Source: Isurus oxyrinchus
Lineage: Eukaryota
NCBI GenBank assembly: GCA_026770705.1
Contig: JANJGN010000021.1
Span: 88,970,001-89,034,000, forward strand
Length of the DNA stretch: 64,000 nucleotides
Reading direction: 5' to 3'
Position 1 is the first letter of the stretch; the number at the start of each line of letters is the position of its first letter. Positions 21,000 to 64,000 of the stretch are shown here, piece by piece. A model generated the notes under the pieces. The model saw nothing but the letters and a program-made list of their open reading frames with translations, searched no databases and was not told where the DNA came from. The translations under genes and the position numbers were made by a program.

Positions 21000-22110
21000 A
21001 GGTTATTAACAAGAATGCATAGATAGAGGATTGGCTAACTAATAGAAGACAGAGAGTTGGGATAAGGGGGACATTTATGGGATGGCAACCTGTAGATGGA
21101 GTGGAGTGCCACAAGGGTCGGTGCTGGGGTCTCAATTATTTACAATATACATTAATGACTTAGATGAGGGAAGTGAATGTACTATCACCAGGTTTGCGGA
21201 TCACACAAGAATGGGTGGGAAGGCAAGTGGTGAGGATGACACAAAGAGTCTACAGAGGGATATAGACAGATTAAGTGAGTGGGCAAAAACTTAGCAGATG
21301 GAATATAATGTGGGAAAATGTGACGTTATGCACTTTGGCAGGAAGAATGGAGGAGCTGAATGTTATTTAAATGGAGAAAGACTGCAGAAGGCTGCAGCAC
21401 AGAGGGGTTTGGGAGTTCTTGTGCATGAATCCCAAAAAGCTAACATACAAGTTCAACAGATAATAGGGAAGGCAAATGGAATGTTGGCCTTTATTTAAAG
21501 GGAATAGAGTACAAAAATAGGGAAGTCTTGCTAAAACAATGTGAGGCACTGGTGAGACCACACCTAAAGTACTGTGAACCATTTTGGTCCCCTTATCTAA
21601 GGAAAGATATACTGGCATTGGAGGCAGTCCAGAGAAGGTTCACTAAGTTGATCCGGGGGTTGAAGCAATTTTCTTATGAGGAGAGATTGAGTCAGTTGGG
21701 CCTGTACTCATTGGAGTTCAGAAGAATGAGAGGGGCTCTTATCGAAACATATAAGATTCTTAAGGGGCTTGACAGGGTAGATGCTGGGAGGTTGTTTCCT
21801 CTTGTGGAGGAGTCGAGGACCAGAGGGTACAATCTCAGAGGAAGGGGGCGCCCATTTAAAACAGAGATGAGGAGGAATTTCTTCTCTCAGAGGGTAGTCA
21901 ATCTGTGGAACTCTTTACCGCAGAGGGCTGTAGAAGCTGGGTTGTTTAGTGTATTCAAGACTGAGATAGGCAGATTTTTAATCAGTGAGGGAATCAAGGC
22001 AGGAAAGTGGAGTTGAGGATTATCAGATCAGCCATGATCACACTGAATGGCAGAGCAGACTCGGTGGGCTAAATGGACTACTTTTGCTCCTACATCCTAT
22101 TATGGTCTTA
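21000..22110 (+). mobile_element. CR1 LINE, 5'-truncated
   Basis: [39 protein letters not shown]; tail tatggtcttatg. Confidence 0.92.
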
Positions 22111-28510: not shown

Positions 28511-29462
28511 TATCATGGTTTGTGCCCTACTTGCATTATGGCAGATGGAGCCTAGATTCTGAGACGCTATTACGCACATTGTGGTGACCAAGATGCCATT
28601 GCAGATACTTAGTGGCATGAGAAGGTTTGAATAACATGCGATACCTTATCTAGCTCAGAGCTACAGTCTCTGGCCCGGAATTCTAATCAACAATAAGTTG
28701 CTCATGATTAATGACTGGATGACCTTTGGCTCGTTATGAATGTCAATTCTGGAGATCACATGACAGCTCCCCCATTGATGGAATGTCATATATGCTGCAC
28801 CTATGTCTTGTTAATGGTCGCCTGCATTTCCAAGTTTTCCGTTCCTGTGTGTTTATGTTGAGATGCAGCGACTATGATGTTAAACCATTGATTTCTGTTA
28901 CAGCGCTGATAAAGACACCGGCTTCCAATGGCTTTCTACCCAAGGAGGTCTTCCTCCTTTTCTCCAATCAGACTCTACTTTGCGGCACCAACAAGTTAGA
29001 GGGCACCCCCAGAAAGGGCACCTCCAGCAGTGCGCTCCTCCCACATAGCCTCACACTGCTCTCATTCAGAATCACTTCCACATTTGATCTATAACTGCAC
29101 CATAACTCCAATACAGCAAGATGGCGGTCCTGCACTATTATTTCAAACTGAACTTCAATGCTCCCTCTCTCACTGCGCGTGTCCCAGAAATCTACCTGGA
29201 ACCTCACGGTGTGAAGGTGGAGCTCCCTCCTGCTATTCTCCAGCCTCCCCCAGTAATACTGGATCCCATCATTGTTCTTTTCAACGTTCCTATCCTCCCA
29301 ACTGTGTCCACCACTACTGGCGTGCCCATGCCCCATGTGGATGTTTACTCTTCCCATCTAGAAGCTGGGTGCACGGTCACCTACCAAGGTGAACCACCCC
29401 CTGCCAGGAAAGCTTCACATACCCACCCCCGCACCACCCCCCACCCCCCCTCCCACTTTAAT

Positions 29463-30672
29463 ATATGTCCTGTATATAAAAAGCAGGACAAATCCAACCC
29501 GGTCAATTACCGCCCCATCAGTCTACTCTCAATCGTCAGTAAAGTAATGGAAGGGGTCATCAACAGTGCTATCAAGCAGCACTTGCGTAGCAACAACCTG
29601 CTCACTGACACCCAGTTTGGGTTCTGCCAGGGCCACTCAGCTCCTGACCTCATTACAGCCTTGGTTCAAATGGACAAAAGAGCTGAACTCCCAAGTCAGG
29701 ATGGTGAGTGGTTTGGAGGGGAACTTCCAGGTGGTTGTGTTCCCATCTATTTGCTGCCCTTGTCCTTCTGGATGGTAGTGCTCATGGGTTTGGAAGGTGC
29801 TGTCGAAGGAGCCTTGGTAAATTCCTGCAGTGCATCTTGTAAATGTTACACACTGTTGCAACTATGCGTCGGTGGTGGAAGGAGTGCTGTTTCTGGATGT
29901 GGTGCCAATAAAGTGGGCTGCTTTGTCCTGGATAGTGTCAAGCTTCTTGAGTATTGTGGGAGCTGCACTCATTCAGACAAGTGGGGAGTATTCCATCATA
30001 CTCCTGACTTGTGCCTTGTAGATGATGGACAGGCTTTAGAGAGTCAGGAGGTGCATTACTCATCACACGATTCCTAGCCTCTGACCTGCTCTTGTAGCCT
30101 CAGCATTTATATGGCTTGTCTGGTTCAGTTTCTGGTCAATGGTAATCCCAGGATGTTGATAGTGGGGGATTCAGTGATGGTAATGCCATTGAACATCAAG
30201 AGGCAATGGTTAGATTCTCTCTTGTTGGAGATGGTCATTGCCTGACACTTGTGTGGCACGAATGTTACTTGCCACTTGTCTGCCCTAGCCTGGATATTGT
30301 CCAGGTTTTGCTGCATTTGGACATGGACTGTTTCAGTAACTGAGGAGTCGCGAATGGTGCTGAACATTGTGCAATCATCAGCGAACATCCCCACTTCTGA
30401 CCTTATGATGGAAGGATGCTTGGGAACACCACCAACTGGAAGTTCCCCTTCCAAGTCACTCAACATCCTGACTTGGAAATATATCGCTGTTCCTTCACTG
30501 ACACTGAGTCAAAATCATGGAATTTCCTCCCTAACAGCACTGTGGGTGTACCTACACCACATGGACTGCAGCGGTTCAAGGAGGCAGCTCACCACCACCT
30601 TCTCAAGGGCAGCTAGGGTTGGGCAATAAATGCTGGACCAGCCAGCCAAGCCCACACCCCCGAATGAATAAA
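29463..30672. mobile_element. L2/CR1-clade LINE with internal inversion (+ 29463-29690, - 29690-30415, + 30415-30672)
   Basis: PVYKKQDKSNPVNYRPISLLS on +; IIRSEVGMFADDCTMF on -; 3' tail on +. Confidence 0.85.
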
Positions 30673-36130: not shown

Positions 36131-39100
36131 AACTATAGAATGGATAACTATAGAATGGATAACTATAGAATGGATAACTATAGAATGGATAGCCATAGAA
36201 TGGATAACTATAGAATGGATAACTATAGAATGGATAGCCATAGAATGGATAACTATAGAATGGATAACTATAGAATGGATAACTATAGAATGGATAGCCT
36301 TAGAATGGATAGCCATAGAATGGATAACTATAGAATGGATAGCCATGGAATGGATAACTATAGAATGGATAGCCATGGAATGGATAACTATAGAATGGAT
36401 AGCTATAGAATGGATAGCCATAGAATGGATAACTATAGAATGGATAGCCATAGAATGGATAACTATAGAATGGATAACCATAGAATGGATAACTATAGAA
36501 TGGATAACTATAGAATGGATAACTATAGAATGGATAGCCATAGAACAGATAGCCATAGAATGGATAACTATAGAATGGATAGCCATAGAATGGATAGCTA
36601 TAGAATGGATAGCCATAGAATGGATAGCCATAGAAAGAATAGCCATAGAATGGATAACTATAGAACAGATAGCCATAGAAAGCATAGCCATAGAATGGAT
36701 AGCCATAGAATGGATAACTATAGAATGGATAGCCATAGAACGGATAGCCATAGAATGGATAACTATAGAACGGATAGCCATAGAATGGATAGCCATAGAA
36801 TGGATAGCCATAGAATGGATAGCCATAGAATGGATAGCCATAGAATGGATAACTATAGAATGGATAGCCATAGAACAGATAGCCATAGAATGGATAACTA
36901 TAGAATGGATAGCCATAGAATGGATAACTATAGAATGGATAGCCATAGAATGGATAGCCATAGAATGGATAACTATAGAATGGATAGCCATAGAACGGAT
37001 AGCCATAGACTGGATAACTATAGAATGGATAGCCATAGAATGGATAACTATAGAATGGATGGCCATAGAAAGGATAACTATAGAATAGATAGCCATAGAA
37101 TGGATAGCCATAGAATGGATAACTATAGAATGGATAGCCATAGAATGGATAACTATAGAATGGATAGCCATAGAATGGATAGCCATAGAATGGATAACTA
37201 TAGAACGGATAGCCATAGAACGGATAACTATAGAATGGATAGCCATAGAATGGATAGCCATAGAATGGATAACTATAGAATGGATAGCCATAGAACGGAT
37301 AGCCATAGATTGGATAACTATAGAATGGATAACTATAGAATGGTAAACCATAGAATGGATAGCCATAGAATGGATAGCCATAGAATGGATAGCCATAGAA
37401 TGGATAGCCATAGAATGGATAACTATAGAACGGATAGCCATAGAAAGGATAGCCATAGAATGGATAACTATAGAAAGGATAGCCATAGAACGGATAACTA
37501 TAGAATGGATAGCCATAGAATGGATAACTATAGAATGGATAACTATAGAATGGATAGCCATAGAATGGATAGCCATAGAATGGATAACTGTAGAATGGAT
37601 AGCTATAGAATGGATAGCCATAGAAAGGATAGCCATAGAATGGATAACTATAGAATGGATAGCCATAGAAAGGATAGCCATAGAATGGATAACTATAGAG
37701 TGGATAGCCATAGAATGGATAGCCATAGAATGGGTAACTATAGAATGGATAGCCATAGAATGGATAGCCATAGAATGGATAACTATAGAATGGATAGCCA
37801 TAGAATGGATAACTATAGAATGGATAACTATAGAATGGCTAACTATAGAATGGATAACTATAGAATGGATAGCCATAGAATGGATAACTATAGAATGGAT
37901 AGCCATAGAATGGATAACTATAGAATGGATAACTATAGAATGGATAACTATAGAATGGATAGCCATAGAATGGATAACTATAGAATGGATAACTATAGAA
38001 TGGATAGCTATAGAATGGATAGCTATAGAATGGATAACTATAGAATAGATAGCTATAGAATGGATAACTATAGAACGGATAGCCATAGAATGGATAACTA
38101 TAGAATGGATAGCCATAGAATGGATAACTATAGAATGGATAGCCATAGAATGGATAGCCATAGAATGGATAACTATAGAATGGATAACTATAGAATGGAT
38201 AACTATAGAATGGATAGCCATAGAATGGATAGCCATAGAACGGATAACTATAGAACGGATAGCCATAGAATGGATAACTATAGAATGGATAGCCATAGAA
38301 TGGATAACTATAGAATGGATAGCCATAGAATGGATAACTATAGAATGGATAGCCATCGAATGGATAACTATAGAATGGATAGCCATAGAATGGATAACTA
38401 TAGAATGGATAACTATAGAATGGATAGCCATAGAATGGATAACTATAGAATGGATAGCCTTAGAATGGATAGCCATGGAATGGATAACTATAGAATGGAT
38501 AGCCATAGAACGGATAGCCATAGACTGGATAACTATAGAATGGATAGCCATAGAATAGATAACTATAGAATGGATGGCCATAGAAAGGATAACTATAGAA
38601 TAGATAGCCATAGAATGGATAGCCATAGAATGGATAACTATAGAATGGATAGCCATAGAATGGATAACTATAGAATGGATAGCCATAGAACGGATAGCCA
38701 TAGAATGGATAACTATAGAACGGATAGCCATAGAAAGGATAGCCATAGAATGGATAACTATAGAAAGGATAGCCATAGAATGGATAACTATAGAATGGAT
38801 AGCCATAGAACGGATAGCCATAGATTGGATAACTATAGAATGGATAACTATAGAATGGAAAACCATAGAATGGATAGCCATAGAATGGATAACTATAGAA
38901 TGGATAACTATAGAATGGATAGCCATAGAATGGATAACCATAGAATGGATAACTGTAGAATGGATAGCTATAGAATGGATAGCCATAGAACGGATAGCCA
39001 TAGAATGGATAACTATAGAATGGATAGCCATAGAAAGGATAGCCATAGAATGGATAACTATAGAACGGATAGCCATAGAATGGATAGCCATAGAATGGAT

Positions 39101-40357
39101 AACTATAGAATGGATAGCCATAGAATGGATAACTATAGAATGGATAACTATAGAATGGATAACTATAGAATGGATAGCCATAGAATGGATAACTATAGAA
39201 TGGATAGCCATAGAATGGATAACTATAGAATGGATGGCCATAGAAAGGATAACTATAGAATAGATAGCCATAGAATGGATAGCCATAGAATGGATAACTA
39301 TAGAACGGATAGCCATAGAAAGGATAGCCATAGAATGGATAACTATAGAAAGGATAGCCATAGAACGGATAACTATAGAATGGATAGCCATAGAATGGAT
39401 AACTATAGAATGGATAACTATAGAATGGATAACCATAGAATGGATAGCCATAGAATGGATAACTGTAGAATGGATAGCTATAGAATGGATAGCCATAGAA
39501 AGGATAGCCATAGAATGGATAACTATAGAATGGATAGCCATAGAAAGGATAGCCATAGAATGGATAACTATAGAACGGATAGCCATAGAATGGATAGGCA
39601 TAGAATGGGTAACTATAGAATGGATAGCCATAGAATGGATAGCCATAGAATGGATAACTATAGAATGGATAGCCATAGAATGGATAACTATAGAATGGAT
39701 AACTATAGAATGGCTAACTATAGAATGGATATCTATAGAATGGATAGCCATAGAATGGATAACTATAGAATGGATAGCCATAGAATGGATAACTATAGAA
39801 TGGATAACTATAATATGGATAACTATAGAATGGATAGCCATAGAATGGATAACTATAGAATGGATAACTATAGAATGGATAGCTATAGAATGGATAGCTA
39901 TAGAATGGATAACTATAGAATAGATAGCCATAGAATGGATAACTATAGAACGGATAGCCATAGAATGGATAACTATAGAATGGATAGCCATAGAATGGAT
40001 AACTATAGAATGGATAGCCATAGAATGGATAGCCATAGAATGGATAACTATAGAATGGATAACTATAGAATGGATAACTATAGAATGGATAGCCATAGAA
40101 TGGATAGCCATAGAACGGATAACTATAGAACGGATAGCCATAGAATGGATAACTATAGAATGGATAGCCATAGAATGGATAACTATAGAATGGATAGCCA
40201 TAGAATGGATAACTATAGAATGGATAGCCATCGAATGGATAACTATAGAATGGATAGCCATAGAATGGATAACTATAGAATGGATAACTATAGAATGGAT
40301 AGCCATAGAATGGATAACTATAGAATGGATAGCCATAGAATGGATAGCCATAGAATG
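36131..40357. repeat. 15-bp satellite, about 282 units of two monomers (AACTATAGAATGGAT / AGCCATAGAATGGAT)
   Basis: Perfect 15-bp register with no indels over 4.2 kb. Confidence 0.99.
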
Positions 40358-45963: not shown

Positions 45964-46039
45964 ATGGGCAGAGAAATTAATCACCGCTTTAAATTCAGCG
46001 CCCTTTGGCTTTCCATTAATTACTTTGTTTCCATCTCTG
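45964..46039 (+). CDS. Ig-V gene copy A, exon 1 (signal peptide MGREINHRFKFSALWLSINYFVSIS)
   Basis: ATG, 25 codons + 1 nt, GTAAGT donor at 46040; phase 1 matches the V exon; same length and donor position in paralog at 57528. Confidence 0.85.
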
Positions 46040-49713: not shown

Positions 49714-50106
49714 CATCTGAGAGCGGTGTTACTGTGAGGGTCCAGCAGAGAGAATTGAAAGAGACCGTGACCCAATCTGTCCTTCTCCCTGTCTCCTACT
49801 CCACACTCACACCCTACTCCGCCTTAAAGATGCAGTGGCGTCTGTTCCCCAGAGAAATCCCATTTATGACACTGACCCGATCAAGCTGCTCCCGACACCC
49901 TGACAGACCCGGTTATAACTGTTCAGATCGCACGGAGACCGCTCCTTCCAACCGGCACCGAGTTCACCTCTACCCGGGGAATGGATCCTTGTTGCTGCGG
50001 GATTTACAGCCCAGTGACAGCGGCGTCTATGTGATATCTGTTTATGCTTTTGGTGAGAATGCAGCCAGGGAAGACATTGTGACTTTAACCGTCTATAACC
50101 AGACAG
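49714..50106 (+). CDS. Ig-V gene copy A, exon 2: CD2/CEACAM/HEPACAM/VSTM5-type V-set domain
   Basis: Acceptor ttgttgcag, 393 nt phase 1-1, donor GTAAGA; SVLLPVSY...QW...RVHLYPGNGSLLLRDLQPSDSGVYVISV...VTLTV. Confidence 0.93.
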
Positions 50107-50150
50107 GTAAGAGCTCAAAAAAAATATATATATAAGATATATATATATCT

Positions 50151-50181
<31 letters not shown>

Positions 50182-50402
50182 AGAGCTCACACTGTTTTTA
50201 TCGCATTATTCCTCGGTGCTGTTTGTTTGTTAATAAATGAACATGTTTCAACTGCACCTTCCTTGTCCCTGTCGCTTCGAGTTGAATTGAATAATGTGAA
50301 CAATTTGATAAAGAATTATTAACTTGTTTTTTGAATCTAATGGAGTGGGCGGTGGGAGTTTGAATGGTGTTGTGGTAATGTCACTAGTGATCTGGAGCCC
50401 CA

Positions 50403-52818: not shown

Positions 52819-53161
52819 AATGCCCATGGGACACAGGTTCAAATCCCACCATGACGGCAAGTGGAATTTAAATTCAATTAATAAAATCTGAAATAAGTAA
52901 CGGTGACCACGAAACTATTCTCCATTGCTCCAAAATCACATGTGGTTCACTAATGCCCTTTAGGGAAGAGAATTTGCCAATCTTACCTGGTCCTTTCGAC
53001 ATGTGACTCCAGACCCACACAGCAATGATGTTGCCTCTTAAAAGCCCCAGCGAGAATTCAAGCGCAGTTAGGGATGGGGAACGAATACTGGCGCCCGCAT
53101 CCCACGAAATATTAATTTAGAAAAAATGAAGTTTTTCTAAGTGTCAAAATTCTTGTTGCAG

Positions 53162-53297
53162 ATTCTGAGACCCCTCCCCCGAACGTCTCGGAGCGAACGG
53201 ACACCCCCAGAGATCTCCCGAGCACCGAGCCGCTGACCTGCTCCGTCTGACCATCTTTGGCGGTTTCAGTGTGCTCGGGGCCTGTCTGTACTTGTGT
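53162..53297 (+). CDS. Ig-V gene copy A, exon 3 (stalk DSETPPPNVSERTDTPRDLPSTEPLTCSV*; overlapping TM frame ADLLRLTIFGGFSVLGACLYLC)
   Basis: Acceptor ttcttgttgcag; phase-1 frame stops at 53248-53250; TM lies in another frame; GTAAGT at 53298; conserved in copy B. Confidence 0.65.
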
Positions 53298-53453
53298 GTA
53301 AGTCGGAGATACAGACAGAACCGACAGCGGCAAAACAACACACACACAGCCGGACATGGAGATGGTTCGTGCTGTTTCTCCAGGGTTTCTGCCGGTCTTG
53401 CCTCGACTTTCGGGAGAGTGGGAGATCTCCGCTCCCTCTTCTCCTCTCCCCAG

Positions 53454-53537
53454 GACATTTTCTCCATTTTGAACACTTTTGTGAAACCCGCCTGCGGAAT
53501 CCCAGCTACAGTCCCAGCGCTCCAGACCTCAGTGTGA
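53454..53537 (+). CDS. Ig-V gene copy A, candidate exon 4 (DIFSILNTFVKPACGIPATVPALQTSV*)
   Basis: Strong acceptor ccctcttctcctctccccag; phase 0, in frame with the TM; equivalent 61554-61637 in copy B. Confidence 0.35.
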   Translation, partial: DIFSILNTFVKPACGIPATVPALQTSV

Positions 53538-54237
53538 ACTGGGGAGATGGCTCCTCACGGCACATCTCCGATAGGAATTCTAGTCCTGTCTTCCGCACAC
53601 ACCATTTGGAAATTGCGCATCCCCGCCCTTTGATCTCTTTCCCACAGCCTTTCACTGGATTCACCGCCCCCAAGCATCCCCACCACCGCCACCCCCCCCA
53701 CCTCCGCCGCCACCCAAACCCCCCACCGCCGCGGCTGTTCGTCTTTTCTGGGCCATTCTCCCCGACCGTCAGTTGCTGCAGTTTGTATAAATCACAGCTT
53801 ATTGGCTTAGTGAGTGTGAGTTGACACATTCACCTGCCGTTTTTGTTGATCACTTGCACCTTCTACAGCTGAACTTCAAACTGAGAAAGAACAAATTCAT
53901 CCTCACTTAATGCGAAATATGTTCAGCAAATTAAATCCGTGATAATTAAGTTCGGGTTTGGTCCCGTCACTGCTGAATGAACATTGGCGCGCAGCCAGTG
54001 GGCAAAGTGAGGGCAGAAATAATCACTGGAAGGGATTAAGTGGACAGGAGCAACTAAAATTTACACCTTTCACAATCTCAGGACGCCCCAGGGCCTTTCG
54101 CCCGCAGTAAAGTAGATTTAAAATGTAGTGGCCGTTGTAATGTCAGGAAACGCCAAATGCAGTTCGTGCAGAACAAGATTCCAGGAATAATAAAATAATC
54201 CTGCCATTCCAGCAATTATTAAGGTGAGCATTTCTTA

Positions 54238-57527: not shown

Positions 57528-57603
57528 ATGGGCAGAGAAAGAAGTCGCTTCTTTAAATTCACCAGCGTTTGCCTTTTCACCAGTTACTTTATTTCCACCT
57601 GTA
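57528..57603 (+). CDS. Ig-V gene copy B, exon 1 (signal peptide MGRERSRFFKFTSVCLFTSYFISTC)
   Basis: ATG, 76 nt, GTAAGT donor at 57604, phase 1. Confidence 0.85.
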
Positions 57604-58855: not shown

Positions 58856-59248
58856 CCTCTGGGAGCGGTGTTACTGTGAGGGTCCAGCAGAGAGAATTGA
58901 AAGGGACCGTGACCCAGTCTGTCCTTCTCCCTGTCTCCTACTCCACACTCACACCCTACTCCGCTTTAAAGATACAGTGGCGTCTATTCCCCAGAGAAAT
59001 CCCATTTGTGACACTGACCCGATCAAGCTGCTCCCGACACCCTGACAGACCCGGTTATAACTGTTCAGATCGCACGGAGACCGCTCCTTTCAACCGGTAC
59101 CGAGTTCACCTCTACCCGGGGAATGGATCCTTGTTGCTGCGGGATTTACAGCCCAGTGACAGCGGCGCTTATGTGATATCTGTTTATGCTGATGGTGAGA
59201 ATGTAGCCAGGGAAGACAATGTGACTTTAACCGTCTATAACCAGACAG
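58856..59248 (+). CDS. Ig-V gene copy B, exon 2: V-set domain
   Basis: 393 nt phase 1-1, about 96% identical to copy A by manual count; weaker donor GTTATG. Confidence 0.92.
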
Positions 59249-61260: not shown

Positions 61261-61396
61261 ATTCTGAGACCCCTCTCTCGAGTGTCTCGAAGCGAACGGA
61301 GACCCCCAGAGATCTCCCGAGCACCGAGCCGCTGACCTGCTCCGTCTGACCATCTTTGGCGGTTTCAGTGTGCTCGGGGCCTGTCTGTACTTGTGT
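61261..61396 (+). CDS. Ig-V gene copy B, exon 3 (DSETPLSSVSKRTETPRDLPSTEPLTCSV*; overlapping TM frame)
   Basis: Acceptor ttcttgctgcag; same two-frame arrangement as copy A; GTGAGT at 61397. Confidence 0.62.
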
Positions 61397-62309
61397 GTGA
61401 GTCGGAGATACAGAGAGAAGCGACAGCGGCAAAACAACACACACACAGCCGGACATGGAGATGGTTCGTGCTGTTTCTCCAGGGTTTCTGCCGGTCTTGC
61501 CTCGACTTTCGGGCAGCGTGGGAGATCTCTGTTCCCTCTTCGCCTCTCCCCAGGATATTTTCTCCATTTTGGACACTTGTGTGAAACCCGCCTGCGGAAT
61601 CCCAGCTACAGTCCCAGCGCTCCTGACCTCAGTGTGAACTGGGGAGATGGCTCCTCACGGCACATCTCCGATAGGAATTCTCGTCCTGTCTTTTGCAAAC
61701 TCCCTCTGGAAATTGCCAACCCGCCCTTTGATCTCTTTTCCACAGACTTTCACCGGGATTCACTGTTCCCCACCCGACAACAGCCCCCCACCCCTCCCGC
61801 CTCCGCGGCTGTTCGGCTTTTCAGGTCCATTCTGCCGACCGTCAGTTGCTGTAGTTTGTATAATTCACAGCTCATTGGCTTAGTGTGTGAGTTGACACAA
61901 TGGCCTGCCGTTTATGGTGATCACTTGCATCTTCTACAGCAGAACTTCAAACTGAGAAAGAACAAATTCATCCTCACTTAATGCGAAATATGATCGGCAA
62001 ATTAAATCCGTGATAATTAAGTTCGGGTTTGGTCCCGTCACTGCTGAATGAACATTGGCGCGCAGCCAGTGGGCAAAGTGAGGGCAGAAATAATCACTGG
62101 AAGGGATTAAGTGGACAGGAATCAACTAAAATTTACACCTTTCACAATCTCAGGACGCCCCAGGGCCTTTCGCCCGCAGTAAAGTGCATTTAAAATGTAG
62201 CGGCCGTTGTAATGCCAGGAAACGTCAAAGGCAGTTCGTGCAGAGCAAGATTCCAGTATTAATAAAATAATCCTGCCATTCCAGGAATTATTTAGGTGAG
62301 CATTTCTTA

Positions 62310-63023: not shown

Positions 63024-64000
63024 CGGGGGGGGGGGGGGCGGAGAGAGAGAGAAAGAGAGAGAGAAGTGGAGGGGGGTGTGTGGTTGTAGGGACAAACAAG
63101 CAGTGATAGAAGCAGATCATCAAAAGATGTCAACAACAATAGAACAAAAGAACACATAGGTGTTAAAGTTGGTGATATTATCTAAACGAATGTGCTAAAA
63201 CGCCTCAACCCCTTCCTATGGCACCACCCCATGCCCACGCAAAAGTTGCAACACCTGCCCCTTCACTTCCTCTCTCCTCACCGTCCAAGGGCCCAAATAC
63301 TCCTTTCAAGTGAAGCAGCATTTCACTTGCATTTCCCCCAACTTAGTCTACTGCATTCGTTGCTCCCAATGTGGTCTCCTCTACATTGGAGAGACCAAAC
63401 GTAAACTGGGCGACCACTTTGCAGAACACCTGCGGTCTGTCCGCAAGAATGACCCAAACCTCCCTGTCACTTGCCATTTTAACACTCCACCTTGCTCTCT
63501 TGCCCACATGTCTGTCCTTGGCTTGCTGCATTGTTCCAGTGAAGCCCAACGCAAACTGGAGGAACAACACCTCATCTTCCGACTAGGCACTTTACAGCCT
63601 TCCGGACTGAATATTGAATTCAACAACTTTAGGTCTTGAGCTCCCTCCTCCATCCCCACCCCCTTTCTGTTTCCCCTTTCCTTTTTTTTCAATAAATTAT
63701 ATAGATTTTTCTTTTCCCACCTATTTCCATTATTTTTAAATATCTTTGAATCTTTTATGCTCCCCCAACCCCCACTAGAGCTATACCTTGAGTGCCCTAC
63801 CATCCATTCTTAATTAGCACATTCGTTTAGATAATATCACCAACTTTAACACCTATGTGTTCTTTTGTTCTATTGTTGTTGACATATTTTGATGATCTGC
63901 TTCTATCACTGCTTGTTTGTCCCTACAACCACACCCCCCCCCTCCACTTCTCTCTCTCTCCGCACCCCCCCCCCCCCCCACTCCCCCCACCCTCCCCAAC
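62784..64000. mobile_element. Young Penelope-like insertion with inverted terminal segment (- 62784-63197, + 63198-64000)
   Basis: Intact GIY-YIG frame 63310-63639; 63075-63197 is the reverse complement of about 63815-63940; hammerhead fold at 62881-62919 (-). Confidence 0.9.

Follow-up and report, generated by a model that had tools for sequence, protein, structure and literature searches.

A probable frameshift before the transmembrane segment in two tandem activating-type paired-receptor genes of the shark Isurus oxyrinchus

Two tandem genes and their stalk/transmembrane exons

The window analysed here, a 64-kb stretch (64,000 nucleotides) of the Isurus oxyrinchus genome, contains two tandem genes on the plus strand (copies A and B), each consisting of leader, Ig V and stalk/transmembrane (TM) exons. 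Every splice junction of both copies was phase 1 with GT/AG ends.

45964..46039, plus strand: copy A leader exon, intact (ATG, 25 codons plus 1 nt, GTAAGT donor)
49714..50106, plus strand: copy A exon for the Ig V-set domain, open throughout and flanked by phase 1 junctions, donor after 50106
53162..53250, plus strand: copy A stalk exon from the CAG acceptor (homologous stalk in codons 1-20, 9 out-of-frame residues, TGA)
53168..53170, plus strand: copy A GAG acceptor at +8, which would feed the TM frame; likely incidental
53203..53299, plus strand: 97 nt without a difference between copies A and B, lesion included; likely a gene-conversion tract
53217..53219, plus strand: copy A C-run, one base short relative to orthologs and extra-C contigs
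53220..53315, plus strand: copy A TM and stop-transfer coding sequence, putatively ancestral and out of frame (Arg codon 53244-53246)
53298..53537, plus strand: putative donor (53298), acceptor (53454) and TSV tail, without ortholog support; likely 3' UTR or intron
53930..54194, plus strand: candidate poly(A) signals ATTAAA (53930) and AATAAA (54189), with counterparts in copy B at 62001 and 62261
57528..57603, plus strand: copy B leader exon, intact, 75% identical to the copy A leader
58856..59248, plus strand: copy B V exon, about 96% identical to the copy A V exon
61261..61414, plus strand: copy B stalk/TM exon with the matching 1-nt loss (61316-61318), stop at 61347-61349, TM out of frame

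The initial annotation had described a stalk exon that opens at a strong CAG acceptor and overlaps, in a second frame, a TM segment containing an Arg, and both were present where it had placed them. From the CAG acceptor (53162 in copy A, 61261 in copy B), both copies encode a 29-residue Pro/Ser/Thr-rich tail ending PLTCSV* (copy A stop at 53248-53250), and the predicted product, including the leader, is 185 aa in either copy. The best 19-residue Kyte-Doolittle mean was 1.88 in the TM frame versus -0.94 in frame 1. The GAG acceptor 8 nt downstream (53170/61269), also reported earlier, does feed the TM frame; its products would be 278 aa in copy A and 393 aa in copy B without an extra splice, and 226 aa in both copies if the splice from 53298/61397 to 53454/61554 were added.

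Several other features of the window were recorded. The copy A V donor sequence (about 12 nt) is doubled around an A/(AT)n run (50106-50190), resembling a target-site duplication with a poly-A remnant, and the copy B V donor is single and weaker (GTTATG). In tblastn searches the copy A leader weakly resembled a bamboo-shark Arg-type leader (E 0.02), and the copy B leader weakly resembled its catshark equivalent (E 0.28). The region 36135-40357, with about 280 units of 15 nt, is probably a stop-free satellite, open for 1431 codons on the plus strand (MDSHR/MDNYR repeats) and for 1416 on the minus strand. Retroelement remnants comprised RVT_1 fragments and a weak GIY-YIG match (29106-30508, 63199-63639), with LINE-like ORFs at 21444, 44591 and 52008.

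Reading frame of the exon in orthologs and public contigs

We compared the exon with orthologs from other cartilaginous fish. In ungapped alignment with the catshark protein P0030, window codons 1-20 matched in frame 1 (9/20 identical, versus 3/19 in frame 2) and codons 21-52 matched in frame 2 (20/32 identical, versus 1/32 in frame 1), with the best frame-switch point at codon 19-21, at the C-run. The V domain, stalk and Arg-containing TM segment lay in one frame in 4 of the 22 aligned cartilaginous-fish proteins, all four being automatic gene models: P0030, P0002 and P0003 (bamboo or epaulette shark proteins) and P0096 (a skate protein). Both P0002 and P0003 retained the basic cluster and reached a stop within a few residues after it, and the spacing from Arg to basic cluster was 19 residues in these proteins as in the TM frame of the window. 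The TM frame was thus kept in orthologs of other sharks, and also in skate, beyond what chance would give. When the stalk/TM region of P0002 served as the query, only P0002 and P0003 were recovered (2 of 6 candidates), and the homolog-search matches included no Arg-type protein annotated in a lamniform shark. A pattern scan of metagenome contigs gave 0 matches.

Since the homology leaves frame 1 at codon 19-21 and continues in frame 2, we read the exon, from its sequence, as one ancestral stalk and Arg-TM frame that was broken by the loss of a single nucleotide at 53217-53219. The in-frame TM segment of the orthologs points the same way, with the TM frame being ancestral and the end of the secreted tail being nine residues of read-through after the one-base loss. 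Dual-coding exons are known from GNAS (XLalphas/ALEX) and CDKN2A, where both frames are expressed and conserved. The shark exon resembles these in having two overlapping frames; unlike them, its relatives do not conserve both frames over the same bases, and homology instead switches once. Passage between frames at a single point is the mark of a frameshift, not of dual coding.

The first alternative offered by the initial annotation was a regulated exon in which use of either CAG at 53162 or GAG at 53170 as acceptor decides between a secreted decoy and a membrane-bound activating receptor. Such a switch is suggested by the presence of the +8 AG in both copies with an open frame to the TM segment, by the tolerance of stalks to sequence change, and by the alternative sites described for KIR transcripts, one of which brings a frameshifted allele back into frame (PMC6288254). 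However, when the 58-nt stalk was shuffled 20,000 times, an AG rescuing the TM frame arose in 53% of the shuffles, and within the first 12 nt in 13%; the +8 acceptor is not beyond chance. The GAG also sits directly behind the CAG, a position in which a GAG acceptor is disfavoured, and the +8 stalk is the frame that matched the ortholog poorly (3/19 versus 9/20). The alternative (+8) stalk, the CSV end and the TSV tail were each absent from the 227 fetched proteins. Furthermore, the +8 products of copies A and B would differ in length without the extra splice, and the in-frame (extra-C) versions described below need no switch. With stalk homology in frame 1 and TM homology in frame 2, we consider this toggle highly unlikely.

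A related explanation is that the lesion is a mutation, and that minor, unregulated use of cryptic acceptors nevertheless yields some membrane receptor. Upstream of the Arg, copy A has three AGs in the TM frame and copy B has four, but all carry G or A at -3, and we judge leaky rescue very unlikely; it would be compatible with a frameshift as a minor effect.

The proposed tail downstream of the TM segment fared in a mixed way. The donors at 53298/61397 (GTAAGT/GTGAGT) and the pyrimidine-rich CAG acceptor at 53454/61554 exist and give an in-frame TSV* tail in both copies, as had been claimed, but the PDZ-like tail itself was rejected. Splicing from 53298 would delete basic residues retained in orthologs, none of the fetched proteins resembled the tail, and contigs from a second organism (run X5, below) diverge from the window at 53361-53364, one of them losing 2 nt at the donor.

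Contigs of four public sequencing runs, out of 24 listed, were compared with window positions 53080-53720. In run X1, which may be the sample behind the window itself, two contigs were identical to copy A across the C-run (53138-53232, 95 nt, depth 21.8; 53203-53295, 93 nt, depth 24.6). They overlap by 30 nt over the run, and bridging, defined as 31 letters on either side of the run, was reached neither by these nor by any other X1 contig. Another X1 contig (53108-53219, depth 13.2) ended at the run and differed at 9 positions, as many as distinguish A from B over that stretch; the 5 listed were all B letters. One extra C was present in a 69-nt contig (53192-53259, depth 7.65; 2 of 5 differences listed), which together with its neighbour (depth 16.6) carried three TM-region substitutions, one of them a valine as in catshark; its Arg codon lies too close to the contig end to be listed, and with 3 of its 5 differences unlisted its full TM frame is putative. 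In the simplest X1 graph, B-type sequence splits into a three-C and a four-C path; the extra-C contig may represent a copy B allele or a further paralog.

Run X5 likewise showed an extra C, once in a contig and once in a loose end (depth 11.5), such that candidate in-frame versions created by one extra C, as the initial annotation had foreseen, were found in both runs. Of the X5 contigs covering the TM segment, one was 10 nt shorter than the window just before it, placing it out of frame, and the other had lost 2 nt directly after it (at the 53298 donor) and had polar changes in the TM core; neither was altered at the Arg codon, each being a single contig at depth 5-6. These two different disruptions of the X5 TM exon (53221-53338) suggest recurrent loss of the activating form. 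The X5 contigs also exit the window sequence at 53364 and re-enter it at 53361 (a 4-nt overlap) after at least 362 letters that do not resemble it, consistent with an insertion there or with a deletion common to both window copies. Contigs of runs X14 and X18 spanned only about 53396-53673 and were continuous through the 53454 acceptor; as these runs may be DNA, their continuity carries no weight on splicing.

These contigs bear on the possibility, raised earlier for the run at 53215-53219, that an assembly or polishing error conceals plain activating receptors, or that copy B was overwritten by copy A reads. The lesion does lie in a homopolymer, is identical in A and B, and has an extra-C counterpart in the same organism (X1). 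However, X1 contigs at depth 22-25 carry the copy A letters without a difference through the run, which makes such an error very unlikely. The contig borders 53203 and 53232 also fall exactly at the last A/B difference (53202), as would be expected if A-type and B-type paths both enter the three-C sequence.

Copies A and B differed at 6 of the first 41 stalk bases and at none of the following 97 (53203-53299; Fisher p 5e-4, with borders chosen after looking). Given this identity around the lesion, its occurrence in both copies counts as one event and not as two witnesses of selection; the observation that both copies carry it stands, but its weight as independent support does not. The lesion would stem from a single mutation that gene conversion, or duplication of the V-TM module, carried into the other copy. 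A further A/B-identical run of 122 nt at 53926-54047 indicates that the 97-nt tract is not unique and that homogenisation was patchy and extended beyond the stalk exon. Judged from their leaders, the two genes may be old paralogs homogenised downstream of these.

The V domain and the receptor family

The V exon matched the Pfam V-set family (E 6.7e-8 for copy A, and 2.9e-9), and the predicted fold of the V domain had a mean pLDDT of 90.8. This domain lacks the canonical B-F Cys pair and contains instead Cys58 and Cys69, which were present in 33 and 34 of 34 aligned rows, respectively. Its closest named matches were from basking shark (89-90%) and white shark (85%), both of which have ITIM-like and ITSM-like motifs; an inhibitory partner gene was absent from the 64-kb window.

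The majority of relatives combined a plain TM segment with ITIM-like and ITSM-like motifs, and a minority, including P0030, P0096 and three frog proteins, had a TM Arg and mostly short tails. Bird relatives included a short-tailed form with an Arg immediately before the TM segment. These types were read from alignments, as automatic classification missed P0003, P0096 and the frog proteins and misnamed a TM-end motif as an ITIM. Named matches came from chimaera, sharks, rays, amphibians, turtles and birds, with no mammal or teleost member among them (most of the 150 rows of one search were unnamed). The chicken and Xenopus matches probably map to chromosomes 4 and 8, apart from the frog ceacam cluster, which is on chromosome 7. 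Annotated isoforms of the tyrosine-motif paralogs P0001, P0029, P0035 and P0040 skip the TM exon, which is another anchorless route, and duck and frog proteins (P0025, P0026, P0089, P0097, P0099) carry tandem arrays of 3-6 or more family V domains.

In a tree of the V domain (34 rows, all kept), Arg-type genes and their tyrosine-motif partners grouped by species, with support of 98/89 for the Scyliorhinus pair and 100/96 for the C. punctatum pair; the Hemiscyllium pair was weak (80/12). V-domain identities were 92%, 92% and 98% for within-species pairs, compared with 64-84% between Arg-type genes of different species. The window genes grouped with lamniform tyrosine-motif genes (100/99), apart from other Arg-type genes. 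Other sharks thus have, as paired receptors do, a paralog with a near-identical ectodomain and inhibitory tyrosine motifs, an activating member with a charged TM residue and without the partner's tyrosine motifs, and ectodomains homogenised within lineages, a process of the kind described for paired receptors in PMC3210942. A description of this V-domain family was not found in our literature searches, though supplementary gene lists of shark, frog or bird genome papers may already name it. The window genes belong to an apparently unnamed paired-receptor family of sharks, rays, chimaera, amphibians, turtles and birds.

Homologs carried automatic names such as 'HEPACAM-like' and 'CEACAM3-like', and weak sequence matches included JAML (E 6.7e-5), CEACAM1 (E 6.9e-4) and CEACAM7, with VSTM5 among the language-model neighbours. 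The fold search was led by generic V-set matches: VCBP3 (Z 16.1, rmsd 2.4, 123 aligned), TCR delta (15.6) and MPZ (15.3). The shark domain shares with the CEACAM N domain, HEPACAM, CD2/SLAM and VSTM5 a V-set fold without B-F cysteines, and with CEACAM the N-terminal position of an IgV-like domain without the canonical disulfide, a comparison that draws on PMC5112662 and PMC13278318. Unlike in all of these, no C-type Ig exon lies between V and TM; HEPACAM and CD2/SLAM continue from V to C2, whereas the shark orthologs pass directly from V to stalk and TM. CEACAM genes are described as lying between lipe and bcl3 with conserved exon phasing (PMC5112662), and no flanking gene was recognised among the 24 window ORFs scanned. 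Receptors of the LRC (KIR, LILR, GPVI) have C2-type Ig domains with the canonical disulfide, unlike the single V-set domain here. In KLRC, Ly49, PIR, CEACAM1/3 and Siglec-11/16, as in the shark family, ectodomains group by species and signalling parts by type (PMC3210942), but the shark family differs in its single or tandem V domains with their own Cys pair and no canonical disulfide.

The closest analogue of the lesion would be human KIR2DS4-deleted (KIR1D), in which a frameshift upstream of the TM segment predicts a soluble protein, and of which both forms persist (PMC2768862, PMC6288254). As in this gene and in macaque KIR1D, a genomic frameshift precedes the TM segment of an activating member of a paired family, and full-length and broken forms, which coexist in KIR, may do so in the shark, where the extra-C contig is possibly a copy B allele or another paralog. 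However, the KIR ectodomain is C2-type and unrelated, the second Ig domain and ligand binding are lost through the deletion in KIR while the single V domain of the shark is whole, and in the shark two tandem genes carry a common lesion. A second likeness is to KIR2DL4 and macaque activating KIR, which have an N-proximal TM Arg that pairs with FcRgamma (PMC1318474, PMC8102735), and to the polymorphic 9A/10A frameshift allele of KIR2DL4. These represent a different gene family with a mammalian adaptor, and 9A truncates the tail after the TM segment, whereas the shark lesion removes the anchor.

Predicted product and its fate

The in-frame relatives point to an ordinary broken copy and not to a built-in two-frame switch, and we consider it very probable that a real frameshift in an activating-type paired receptor, as the second alternative of the initial annotation had proposed, yields a secreted or null form; orthologs and public contigs both argue for it. 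With one base lost before the TM segment, normal splicing would produce a 185-residue protein without a membrane anchor. As both broken copies keep leader and V domain and end in a tail without hydrophobicity, the product would be secreted if made; a GPI anchor was rejected, the frame-1 tail being hydrophilic. The stop is in the likely last exon, so the transcript would be predicted to escape nonsense-mediated decay, and it lies only 47 nt before the one downstream junction that had been proposed.

Given a frameshift, we think a decaying or null activator rather likely, and a secreted product that still binds ligand somewhat less likely though well conceivable. The V exons of A and B had pN 0.038 and pS 0.041 (15 changes), two N-glycan sequons were lost in A and one in B relative to the basking-shark paralog, and position 79 is Asn in the window and Tyr or His in 30 of 34 rows. 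These values hint at drift and do not separate decay from diversification, as pN/pS near 1 is also expected from diversifying selection. The intact leaders, splice sites and V frames of both copies fit a recent lesion or a kept product equally.

The intact receptor would be expected to signal through an ITAM adaptor via its TM Arg, opposing the tyrosine-motif paralog with a near-identical V domain. Recruitment of FcRgamma by this Arg had been called established, which holds for mammals (PMC1318474; PMC8102735) but not for sharks, where a 2014 survey reported no FcRgamma in the genomes it covered (PMC4016189) and the adaptor is therefore uncertain. FcRgamma may pair with such receptors in sharks, and CD3zeta would be an alternative; our literature search for shark adaptors of such receptors was otherwise without result. 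Later annotations reportedly list an FcRgamma chain. The question raised is which adaptor serves an Arg-TM receptor in sharks, given the 2014 survey.

A dual-frame switch would have been surprising, and a frameshifted activating receptor is an outcome well known in mammalian paired families. The main remaining value lies in the family itself, with Arg-TM and tyrosine-motif members whose V domains, in lineages ranging from cartilaginous fish to birds, are homogenised by species; this suggests that a receptor pair driven by pathogens predates bony fish. More tentatively, and on balance doubtful, this undescribed family may date back to the origin of jawed vertebrates (members in chimaera, sharks, rays, frogs, newts, turtles and birds), the shark keeping a membrane-versus-secreted polymorphism of its activating member that gene conversion passed between the tandem genes, and a second species having lost the anchor through a frameshift of its own. 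If true, this would represent the recurrent birth of a soluble decoy with an intact V domain, a shark parallel of KIR1D and LILRA3.
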